Below are positions 10,410-56,961 of a DNA stretch of 64,000 bases, piece after piece. How positions within the stretch are numbered: the stretch's first letter is position 1; the number at the start of each line of letters is the position of its first letter. Made by a program: the position numbers and the translations under genes. The DNA is from Escherichia coli. Lineage in GTDB: Bacteria; Pseudomonadota; Gammaproteobacteria; Enterobacterales; Enterobacteriaceae. Location of the stretch: NCBI RefSeq assembly GCF_016903815.1, contig NZ_CP069973.1; one strand, written 5' to 3'. The notes beneath the pieces were generated by a model. That model had not been told where the DNA came from, made no database searches, and saw nothing but the letters and a program-made list of their open reading frames with translations.

Positions 10410-10685
10410 GTGGCTTCCATTTCCATCAGATGTCCTTCCTGCTCCGCTACTGAAGGCGTGGTGCGTAACGGCAAAAGCACTGCCGGACATCAGCGCTATC
10501 TCTGCTCTCATTGCCGTAAAACATGGCAACTACAGTTCACTTACACCGCCTCTCAGCCCGGTACGCACCAGAAAATCATTGATATGGCCATGAATGGCGT
10601 CGGATGTCGCGCCAGTGCACGCATTATGGGCGTTGGCCTCAACACGGTTTTACGTCACTTAAAAAACTCAGGCCGCAGTCGGTAA
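10410..10685 (+). CDS. insA: IS1 InsA (DNA-binding repressor)
   Basis: 91-aa [40 protein letters not shown]... zinc-finger protein of IS1. Confidence 0.93.
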
Positions 10686-11107
10686 CCTCGCGCATACAAC
10701 CGGGCAGTGATGTGATTGTCTGCGCTGAAATGGACGAACAGTGGGGCTACGTCGGTGCTAAATCACGTCAGCGCTGGCTGTTTTACGCGTATGACAGGAT
10801 ACGGAGGACGGTTGTGGCGCACGTCTTCGGTGAACGCACTCTGGCCACACTGGAGCGTCTTCTGAGCCTGCTGTCGGCCTTTGAGGTCGTGGTATGGATG
10901 ACGGATGGCTGGCCGCTGTATGAATCACGCCTGAAGGGAAAGCTGCACGTTATCAGCAAGCGTTACACTCAGCGCATTGAGCGACATAATCTGAATCTGA
11001 GACAACATCTGGCAAGGCTGGGACGGAAGTCACTGTCGTTCTCAAAATCGGTGGAGCTGCATGACAAGGTCATCGGGCATTATCTGAACATAAAACACTA
11101 TCAGTAA
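10604..11107 (+). CDS. insB: IS1 InsB frame (transposase catalytic part, expressed as InsAB' fusion)
   Basis: 167-aa ORF in -1 frame relative to insA; ...[32 protein letters not shown]... Confidence 0.9.
10652..10658 (+). other. IS1 programmed -1 ribosomal frameshift motif (A6C)
   Basis: ttAAAAAACtc near the 3' end of insA where the insB frame overlaps; known site producing InsAB' transposase. Confidence 0.8.
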
Positions 11108-53688: not shown

Positions 53689-54438
<750 letters not shown>

Positions 54439-54439
54439 T

Positions 54440-54949
<510 letters not shown>

Positions 54950-54970
<21 letters not shown>

Positions 54971-55393
54971 GTTACGTAGCCAGATCATTTTTTTACCAAA
55001 GCCCAGCGTGTTGTCGGTGAATTTGATTTCATCAAGCCGGATTTCCCACACCGGGGCCGACAGCATTCTGGCAACCGGAAAGCGACGATTGTACGCCTGG
55101 CGTGCGAGGTCGCTTTCCTCACCTTCAAGCCTGCGGATCTCGCCTTTAAATTGCATGCCGCGAATTAACGCTACCGTTTTCGGCTGACCGTTTACCGTTC
55201 CGGCAACTGCCGCCTGCGGCCCACTCATCTGCGCGTGGCGCGTTTTTTCTTCCGTCAAAATGTAGAAGGCGACTTTCTGCGCATCAAAAAGATAAAAGGC
55301 ATTAGCGCACCAGAGTTCCCCTTCCTGCTGCACACACCAGGTGACAACATGTTGTTTTGCCAGCCAACGGCTGATGGCGGTGAGTGTTTCCAT
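54950..55393 (-). CDS. yhbP: UPF0306 protein YhbP
   Basis: 147-aa [58 protein letters not shown]...; 3' end overlaps yhbO by 21 nt (convergent). Confidence 0.85.
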
Positions 55394-55442
55394 AGCTGTT
55401 CTCTTTTATACTGTGGCCTGACCTTAACATGCGACGCAGACG

Positions 55443-55745
55443 ATGACACCCTGGTTTCTTTACTTGATCCGTACCGCCGACAATAAGCTTTATACCGGGA
55501 TCACCACAGATGTCGAACGCCGCTATCAGCAGCACCAAAGCGGCAAAGGGGCGAAAGCACTGCGCGGGAAAGGAGAACTAACGCTGGCGTTTTCCGCGCC
55601 AGTGGGCGATCGTTCACTGGCACTACGGGCGGAATATCGCGTTAAGAAACTGACCAAACGGCAAAAAGAGCGTCTGGTAGCGGAAGGCGCAGGGTTTGCA
55701 GAGCTGTTGAGCAGCCTGCAAACCCCGGAGATTAAAAGCGATTGA
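55443..55745 (+). CDS. yhbQ: GIY-YIG domain endonuclease-like protein
   Basis: 100-aa [49 protein letters not shown]... Confidence 0.88.
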
Positions 55746-56235
55746 AGTGCTCGTGATACTCAACCAGACCGGTTACGCCGTTCAGCGCGTCATCCGCTAA
55801 ACGATGTACCTGGAAGGCGCTTTCAGTGCCCGGCCAGCAGCAACGCAGATCGTGATGCGCCGCCAGCTCAAAGCCGAAACGACTGTACAGCGCCGGATCG
55901 CCCAGCGTCACCACTGCGGCATAGCCGAACTCATTAAGCGAATCGAGTCCTTCATAGACCAGTTGGCGTGCCAGCCCCTGTCCACGGTATTTTTCATCAA
56001 CCGCCAACGGTGCCATGCCGACCCATTGCAGGTCTTCGCCCTGCACATCAACCGGACTAAATGCCACATAGCCAATGACCTGACCTTCGTCATCTGTCGC
56101 CACCAGCCCCAGCGTCAGAAAGCCATCTTCACGCAGATCGTGAACCAGCTTCGCTTCCGCATCACTTTCGAATGAACGACGCAGCAGGGCATCAATACCC
56201 GGCGCATCAATGGGAATTTCTACTCGAATTAGCAT
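55732..56235 (-). CDS. yhbS: GNAT-family N-acetyltransferase
   Basis: 167-aa [64 protein letters not shown]... Confidence 0.88.
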
Positions 56236-56753
56236 GGTTCACCTACCGATGTCTGTTTGGTTTCAGGCGCGGTTTTCATTCCCGCCTCAACAAAATCCGC
56301 CAGTTGCAGCAGCATCATGCGTAAGGCTTTCGGCATTTGCTCCAGTTCAATGGCGTCCATCAGGTTTTTCACATACAGCCCCAGCTCCGTATCGCCTTCA
56401 ATCGCCAGCCGACGCTGGAAGAAGAGCGTATCCGGATCTTGTTTACGCGCCGCAATCATCAGCAGATCGCTGGCGTCGGCACTAAAACTCACATCAGCTT
56501 GCGCGTTCTGGCTAACGACCAGTTTGCCATTCACCACCGAGGTAAACCATTGCAGGTCAATATCACGCACATGAATACTTAACCAGCGGCCTTCAAGAAA
56601 CTCCAGCTCGCCATCATCCAGCGCCTGACGGAATTGCCAGCTTAAGACCTGCTCAAGAACCTGGCGTTTTAGCGCAAATGGCGTCAGTTTTACCGGTACA
56701 CTCAACAGAGATGGCCCCAAATGCACAATACGGGAACGCAGTTTATCCAACAC
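56229..56753 (-). CDS. ubiT: SCP2-domain accessory protein of O2-independent ubiquinone synthesis
   Basis: ORF 56229..56777 (TTG); likely GTG start at 56753 giving 174 aa MLDKLRSRIVHLGPSLLSVPVKLTPFALKRQ...; overlaps yhbS start. Confidence 0.8.
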   Translation of the reverse strand: MLDKLRSRIVHLGPSLLSVPVKLTPFALKRQVLEQVLSWQFRQALDDGELEFLEGRWLSIHVRDIDLQWFTSVVNGKLVVSQNAQADVSFSADASDLLMIAARKQDPDTLFFQRRLAIEGDTELGLYVKNLMDAIELEQMPKALRMMLLQLADFVEAGMKTAPETKQTSVGEPC

Positions 56754-56961
56754 GAGTTTTACTCCCTGTTTCAACAATCATCCTATTTTGCCATATCAGA
56801 AAAATAACATAGCGGTATAAATCAACAATTCCATATGAAATTGCTGCTACCACCAATACAACTTTAACTGCCTTAAATCAAAAATTGTCGCAGCAAGGTT
56901 AACTAAAATCCCAGTTCGTTAACATTTTTGCGCTTTGATAGCGCAACCTTCAGGAAAAATT

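Follow-up and report, generated by a model that had tools for sequence, protein, structure and literature searches.

Convergent coding overlaps in the yhbO-yhbP-yhbQ-yhbS region of Escherichia coli: a probable outcome of genome compaction

The yhbO-yhbP-yhbQ-yhbS region of E. coli contains two convergent gene pairs whose coding sequences (CDSs) overlap at their 3' ends, and both overlaps are, with a probability that we put at roughly 80%, genuine products of genome compaction and not a dedicated regulatory device. In each pair, one protein has a conserved C-terminus (YhbO, YhbS), and the variable tail of the partner (YhbP, YhbQ) reads into it. The first stop codon that this tail meets is formed by the antisense of conserved codons of the partner, and the length of the overlap would be set by the protein constraint. 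Conceivably, the partners also dampen each other's expression, which would then likely be a weak by-product.

Genes, overlaps and their frequency

At this locus, the window (the whole 64-kb stretch of DNA that was analyzed) carries the following genes and overlaps:

54452–54970, plus strand: yhbO CDS, DJ-1/PfpI family protein/nucleic acid deglycase, 172 aa (ORF listing and RefSeq)
54950–55393, minus strand: yhbP CDS, YhbP family, 147 aa (ORF listing and RefSeq)
55443–55745, plus strand: yhbQ CDS, GIY-YIG nuclease, 100 aa (ORF listing and RefSeq)
55732–56235, minus strand: yhbS CDS, GNAT acetyltransferase, 167 aa (ORF listing and RefSeq)
56229–56753, minus strand: ubiT (yhbT) CDS, 5' of yhbS on the same strand (RefSeq)
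54950–54970: convergent CDS overlap of yhbO and yhbP, 21 nt (ORF listing and sequence)
55732–55745: convergent CDS overlap of yhbQ and yhbS, 14 nt (ORF listing and sequence)
56229–56235: same-strand overlap of ubiT and yhbS, 7 nt, ATGCTAA (ubiT stop/yhbS start)

A preliminary description of this DNA had claimed convergent overlaps of 21 nt for yhbO/yhbP and 14 nt for yhbQ/yhbS, and both were confirmed by ORFs, sequence and RefSeq. The same-strand overlap that it had also announced for this stretch is the 7 nt shared by ubiT and yhbS, which RefSeq annotates. Identical overlaps (21, 14 and 7 nt) are present in the RefSeq annotations of the 100%-identical E. coli strain 7/2 and of K-12 MG1655. 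Positions 54300–56900 show 100% identity to several complete genomes and were matched in 5,424 of 5,426 E. coli genomes. In both convergent pairs, the frames lie on opposite strands, the 3' ends have nucleotides in common and both genes are real by homology, as the definition of a convergent overlap has it. Elsewhere in the window of this strain, an IS1 transposase (programmed frameshift) is annotated at 10410–11107, between yqjG and yhaH.

In order to follow the overlaps across the family, a genome scan with YhbP was used, which yielded 80 Enterobacteriaceae loci with 74–99% protein identity; gene stops in these loci were placed by tblastn and subsequent in-frame extension. All four proteins (YhbO, YhbP, YhbQ and YhbS) are conserved in 58–80 of the genomes, and the YhbP and YhbQ tails vary while staying open. 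The DJ-1_PfpI domain covers residues 3–168 of the 172 residues of YhbO, and the GIY-YIG catalytic domain covers residues 4–76 of YhbQ, with the variable tail after it. For YhbP, no Pfam match was obtained and no relatives were found in the PDB.

These data also bear on the idea that a stop or a frame was mis-called in each pair and that the real proteins are free of overlap. YhbP and YhbQ are indeed least conserved in their overlapping tails, and YhbP lacks a Pfam match. However, each stop is fixed by its frame, the frames are confirmed by full-length homology (75–99% identity) in 80 genomes, independent RefSeq annotations agree and several complete genomes are identical, so that we rejected an annotation artefact as extremely improbable. 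Reassignment of the stops, which the preliminary description had named as a finding that would speak against the overlaps, was checked as well: the stops are fixed, and the frames are backed by C-terminal homology (YhbO DJ-1_PfpI, YhbS).

Overlaps of this kind are ordinary. In E. coli, 663 adjacent CDS pairs overlap, 75 of them convergently (PMC4161906), and convergent CDS overlap is therefore a common feature; by a rough estimate, about 10–15% of the convergent pairs would overlap. The 64-kb window has eight convergent junctions, two of which overlap (yhbO/yhbP and yhbQ/yhbS), while the other six are gapped by 49–390 nt; several same-strand overlaps of 1–11 nt occur elsewhere in it. Neighbouring double convergent overlaps can be roughly estimated to arise by chance several to roughly ten times per genome, and the two described here are no excess over chance. 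They are also already known, since they are annotated in RefSeq and catalogued as excludons.

Partner codons and overlap length

The check that the preliminary description had proposed, conservation of the overlapping stops, came out positive. The yhbQ/yhbS overlap measures 14 nt in 77 of the 80 loci and 4 nt in the other three, and for yhbO/yhbP, 39 loci share 21 nt and 14 share 15 nt. In 22/80 loci, yhbO is absent (E. albertii, E. whittamii, the C. freundii complex, Kluyvera and Trabulsiella).

At the yhbO/yhbP junction, the C-terminal alignment shows a conserved YhbO end, ...ALRLLG(A/S) followed by the stop. YhbP is conserved as far as ...GFGKK.HWLR, and its tail beyond this point is the antisense translation of yhbO codons, the final seven codons NSGTEQA before the stop being a non-conserved tail. 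Read on the opposite strand, the Leu codon TTA within YhbO ALRLLGS supplies the TAA at which yhbP stops. Across the loci, a YhbO Leu codon written as TTA or CTA provides the yhbP stop in this way, and which Leu codon this is decides between an overlap of 21 nt and one of 15 nt. In the genomes without yhbO, YhbP mostly stops straight past WLR (D, DL, QE, etc.), 5–7 codons earlier.

Several further observations concern this junction. In K. pneumoniae ATCC 13883, the yhbO stop is replaced (...LLGAGITPPV and stop), YhbO is six residues longer and the overlap with yhbP extends to 39 nt (equivalent to 54950–54990). In the loci without yhbO, yraR lies directly after yhbP on the same strand, with a gap of just 5 nt in Trabulsiella (equivalent to ~54370–54970). 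A junction motif, (T/C)TAACTATAG, is common to E. albertii, E. whittamii and the C. freundii complex and was unseen in yhbO-containing genomes; it suggests an old haplotype without yhbO, or the transfer of such a haplotype between lineages. In two Escherichia genomes, 7 nt (CACACCG) that lie between CCG repeats are deleted close to the yhbO 3' end (equivalent to ~54905–54925), which shifts the yhbO frame; the conserved C-terminus is lost and the gene is probably a pseudogene.

The yhbQ/yhbS junction follows the same logic. Here, the C-terminus of YhbS is conserved in the C-terminal alignment (...VEYH[D/E]HFNRF and stop), and the antisense of its Phe-Asn codons TTC-AAT contains the yhbQ stop TGA. 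Across the loci, the yhbQ stop (TGA or TAA) is the antisense of yhbS TT[C/T]-A, i.e. Phe plus the first base of the next codon. Because the stop is the antisense of those codons, it is immovable while YhbS keeps HFNRF. The 4-nt overlap belongs to three Citrobacter genomes, in which a yhbQ codon AAA has become TAA.

Upstream of the stop, the length of the YhbQ tail varies by whole codons, and its ending, (I/L/V)K(S/N)D before the stop, is set by the antisense of yhbS NRF and its stop. Variable tails are likewise present in Firmicute homologues of YhbQ whose structures have been solved (107 and 96 aa), and we therefore consider the variable tail a feature of the family and not pure read-on. Despite indels, the tail is open to the obligatory stop in 77/80 species, which hints at some selection on the tail or on RNA encoded by it.

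Based on these alignments, stop conservation appears to be a side effect of constraint on the protein of the partner gene and not evidence of selection on the overlap: overlap lengths are kept because conserved C-terminal codons of the partner protein supply the antisense stop. The natural variants, namely loss of yhbO with a shorter YhbP, the 4-nt form of Citrobacter and the 39-nt form of K. pneumoniae, indicate that the overlaps are tolerated rather than required. Coupled expression of the neighbours, as proposed in the preliminary description, need not be invoked to account for the conservation.

Between the two convergent pairs, the divergent yhbP-yhbQ spacer (55394–55442) is 49–55 nt long in nearly all genomes and 212 nt long in Intestinirhabdus. 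With such a short spacer, the promoters of yhbP and yhbQ must overlap or sit in the neighbouring gene; a promoter scan found no sigma-70-like sites within the cluster. Enterobacter, Lelliottia, Silvania and relatives have a near-perfect inverted repeat in this spacer, TAAGGTG-N3-CACCTTA, which is degenerate in E. coli and could be a candidate operator.

The 7-nt ubiT/yhbS overlap keeps the form ATG(C/T)T(A/G)A in every related locus, and a GGTGA Shine-Dalgarno-like motif lies just upstream of ATGCTAA. This would fit the standard arrangement for translational coupling in an operon. In a plasmid screen, yhbT and yhbS were removed together as one candidate unit, yhbTS (bioRxiv 10.1101/2021.05.11.443692).

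Transcript ends and antisense RNA

As no spacer separates the convergent genes, each transcript must end within the opposite gene. The earlier statement that there is no room for terminators between them was borne out: the CDSs overlap, and the mapped yhbS end lies 50 nt inside yhbQ. The following elements are relevant to these ends:

55682–55684, minus strand: published primary 3' terminus of yhbS mRNA, MG1655 3300206/7, 3'UTR of 50 nt (PMC10687069 Supplementary Data 2–4)
55690–55727, minus strand: hairpin 1, a 16-bp stem-loop that begins 5 nt past the yhbS stop and lies wholly in yhbQ codons
55653–55678: hairpin 2, a 9-bp inverted repeat in the yhbQ codons TKRQKERLV
55710–55733: 22-bp yhbQ/yhbS duplex, plus strand 55712–55733 and minus strand 55710–55731 (mapped 22-mers)
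54550–54949, minus strand: yhbP transcript extension antisense to yhbO (PMC7815308 and coordinate mapping)
54896–54912, minus strand: terminator-like hairpin 38 nt past the yhbP stop, in the YhbO codons QLVTSR

According to published data, the ubiT-yhbS mRNA ends about 50 nt past its stop, just beyond a strong hairpin in yhbQ codons. The primary 3' terminus of yhbS was reported with a hairpin of -24.9 kcal/mol immediately upstream (PMC10687069); this is hairpin 1, and the terminus lies 6–8 nt past it. In our analysis, an 86-nt test window with hairpin 1 folded at -27.8 kcal/mol (z -3.2), and none of 200 shuffles was as stable. Neither strand has a U-tract behind the hairpin (tails UGCGCCUUCC on the minus and GGAGAUUAAAAG on the plus strand), and the terminator scan did not call it. 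Because of this lack of a U-tract, we infer that the yhbS end is formed by trimming back to hairpin 1: transcription would probably terminate further downstream, followed by exonuclease trimming to the hairpin.

Within the family, Escherichia, Citrobacter, S. enterica arizonae and Trabulsiella have a strong hairpin 1, and it ranks in the top 5% of the local background in 23/80 loci. In Enterobacter, Klebsiella and Kluyvera, one arm is missing through a deletion of 9–12 nt. About 30 of 38 sequences retain the core stem, and 10 have a G-C to C-G swap; covariation in this set was not clearly above slid controls, and RNAalifold gave no consensus structure for the 38 yhbS 3' regions.

Such a hairpin could alternatively be a programmed bidirectional terminator, or a site of RNA polymerase (RNAP) collision within yhbQ, that determines where both the yhbQ and the yhbS transcripts end. 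It is a strong palindromic stem-loop at a convergent gene boundary with the yhbS 3' end mapped right behind it, and in published work, stem-loops were shown to set where RNAPs from convergent genes collide head-on (bioRxiv 10.1101/2022.10.23.513370). We consider this role quite unlikely. Besides the missing U-tract, hairpin 1 is upstream of the yhbQ stop on the plus strand, and termination there would therefore truncate the yhbQ mRNA. No plus-strand 3' end is reported at the hairpin, the minus-strand end standing alone in the searched tables, and the element lacks an RNAalifold consensus, is strong in only about 23 of 80 loci and has been deleted in three genera.

Hairpin 2 is paired in 91.5% of cells over 79 loci versus at most 53% for slid controls. 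One of its synonymous-site pairs shows three Watson-Crick types (GC 37, AU 12, CG 7, GU 4), a pattern in which covariation is confounded by phylogeny and by derivation of the structure from the same sequences. Compensatory third-position changes give C-G in Escherichia, A-U in Citrobacter and G-C elsewhere. The element pairs better on the yhbS-sense strand, where G-U corresponds to an A-C mismatch on the yhbQ-sense strand. Covariation of hairpin 2 across the family is suggestive, and judging from the alignments, RNA-level selection may act on hairpin 1 (G-C/C-G swap) and hairpin 2 (three pair types). Rfam returned nothing for 54300–56900 besides a CRISPR-DR22 match in the divergent ubiT-ubiU intergenic region (56785–56821), which was dismissed as almost certainly a chance hit (21.9 bits versus a gathering threshold of 50, E 0.2).

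On the yhbP strand, published data place the end of transcription within yhbO, at a region that depends on Rho. This Rho termination region was reported on the minus strand at MG1655 3299102 and classed as antisense to yhbO (PMC7815308 supplementary file 2), with upstream/downstream reads of 77/20 without and 115/143 with bicyclomycin (BCM), a Rho score of 4.79 and p 2.7e-9. Coordinate mapping places it at approximately position 54580 of the window, with the signal peak ~370 nt past the yhbP stop; the score is coarse, as it uses 800-nt coverage windows of which the downstream one takes in yraR. Read-through on this strand rises with bicyclomycin, as a Rho-dependent terminator is defined to do (PMC7815308 data). 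When Rho is inhibited, yhbP-strand reads run on towards yraR (downstream 143 versus 20; 54370–54580, minus strand), which parallels the yhbP-yraR adjacency of the yhbO-less genomes.

Past the yhbP stop, the RNA has a C/G ratio of 1.92 at +41 to +118 and of 0.65–0.9 further downstream. The antisense RNA 3' of the yhbO and yhbQ stops is C-rich and G-poor as well (C/G up to 2.0), and the yhbO and yhbQ transcripts would probably be stopped by Rho in this C-rich antisense RNA. Nucleotide-resolution 3' ends for yhbO, yhbP and yhbQ were found in none of the Adams et al. Term-seq, TERMITe and PMC10687069 tables. Two terminator candidates were set aside. The hairpin at 54896–54912 consists of common YhbO codons, is weaker in Enterobacter and is not conserved in structure, and is probably incidental. 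A plus-strand GC hairpin with T6 inside yhbP (55230–55248) was no better than shuffles (z +0.29) and matched no 3'-end data.

Overlapping transcription, which the preliminary description had implied, is apparent at both pairs: both are in the excludon list, the yhbS end lies inside yhbQ and the Rho region of the yhbP strand is antisense to yhbO. Its more specific suggestion of antisense 3' pairing held at yhbQ/yhbS, where an RNase III duplex is documented; among the PMC7373196 entries that were covered, none is for yhbO/yhbP. The yhbQ/yhbS entry is a p19-captured, RNase III-cut, perfectly paired 22-bp duplex with 2-nt overhangs, labelled 'yhbQ yhbS' (PMC7373196 Table S3, Huang et al.), and its strands are CAGUCUGCAAACCCCGGAGAUU with 584 reads and UCUCCGGGGUUUGCAGACUGCU with 274 reads. 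It covers one arm of hairpin 1 and the yhbS stop. Since the flanks of the 22-mers show opposite strands, the duplex is an intermolecular sense/antisense pair cut in vivo by RNase III.

This evidence could be read as that of functional excludons, i.e. overlaps kept since antisense transcription and RNase III give mutually exclusive expression of yhbO versus yhbP and of yhbQ versus ubiT-yhbS. ExcludonFinder places both pairs in its E. coli MG1655 core list of 165 convergent excludons (PMC12288877 Table 1), all of them present in 50% or more of 58 MG1655 RNA-seq data sets. The RNase III duplex, the family-wide conservation of the overlap lengths and the antisense coverage of most of yhbO by the yhbP transcript point in the same direction. 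Nevertheless, we regard this reading as unlikely. Listing needs just overlapping RNA-seq coverage and is automatic for pairs whose CDSs overlap, and the partner-protein constraint already explains the conservation. Moreover, yhbO has been lost in 22/80 genomes with YhbP merely shorter, and the yhbQ/yhbS overlap has been cut to 4 nt in three Citrobacter genomes. The average p19 dsRNA density is also far lower at convergent 3' overlaps than at 5' overlaps (PMC7373196).

Another role, which we hold to be very doubtful, is that the yhbQ tail is kept open partly as RNA elements of the opposite transcript, combined with an RNase III-mediated antagonism of YhbQ and ubiT-yhbS. If so, the ubiT-yhbS mRNA would owe the formation and protection of its 3' end to hairpin 1, with hairpin 2 just beyond, and cleavage of the yhbQ/yhbS duplex would result in post-transcriptional antagonism; the coding-embedded 3'-end element would then have a regulatory role.

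Significance and comparison with known systems

Under the compaction reading, the locus offers a clean and well-documented example of how convergent CDS overlaps arise and persist, namely through conserved C-terminal codons that impose an antisense stop. Without an intergenic terminator, transcripts would end at a hairpin in the codons of the partner or by Rho. Coupling of the pairs, if true, would connect a stress deglycase of the DJ-1 family with a GIY-YIG DNA-damage nuclease and with the ubiT-yhbS operon, whose products are the anaerobic ubiquinone factor UbiT and the Hfq-antagonising acetyltransferase YhbS. Beyond book-keeping, the importance of the overlaps is little.

Suppression of antisense read-through by Rho and trimming of 3' ends back to a protective hairpin have reportedly been described by Peters et al. 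(2012) and by Dar and Sorek (2018). Likewise, read-through on the yhbP strand is sensitive to bicyclomycin (PMC7815308), and the yhbS end lies a few nt past a stable hairpin without a U-tract. The present case differs in that the protective hairpin would be located inside codons of the partner gene, and the trimming is deduced from this position. Bidirectional intrinsic terminators and programmed RNAP collisions at convergent genes are said to have been reported by Ju et al. (2019) and Wang et al. Hairpin 1 resembles them as a GC-rich palindromic stem-loop at the boundary of a convergent pair, whereas it has no flanking A- or U-tracts, lies inside an ORF instead of an intergenic region and has a 3' end mapped on one strand.

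With excludons, the locus shares overlapping transcription in both pairs and RNase III-cut dsRNA at yhbQ/yhbS. Here, however, the overlap takes in coding sequence and not UTRs alone, and the mutually exclusive expression that defines the class is hypothetical at these pairs. The ubiT/yhbS junction resembles translationally coupled termination-reinitiation overlaps (PMC10666635) in its conserved stop/start overlap on one strand, and its 7 nt differ from the commoner 4- or 1-nt overlaps while belonging to the same phase class.

The closest match is provided by bacterial tail-to-tail overlapping pairs, in which opposite-strand CDSs likewise have a short common 3' coding stretch that results from stop-codon movement. 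We see no essential difference from this class; the overlaps of 21 and 14 nt are longer than the 4-nt form of the three Citrobacter loci, and two of them lie back-to-back within a 1.3-kb stretch.
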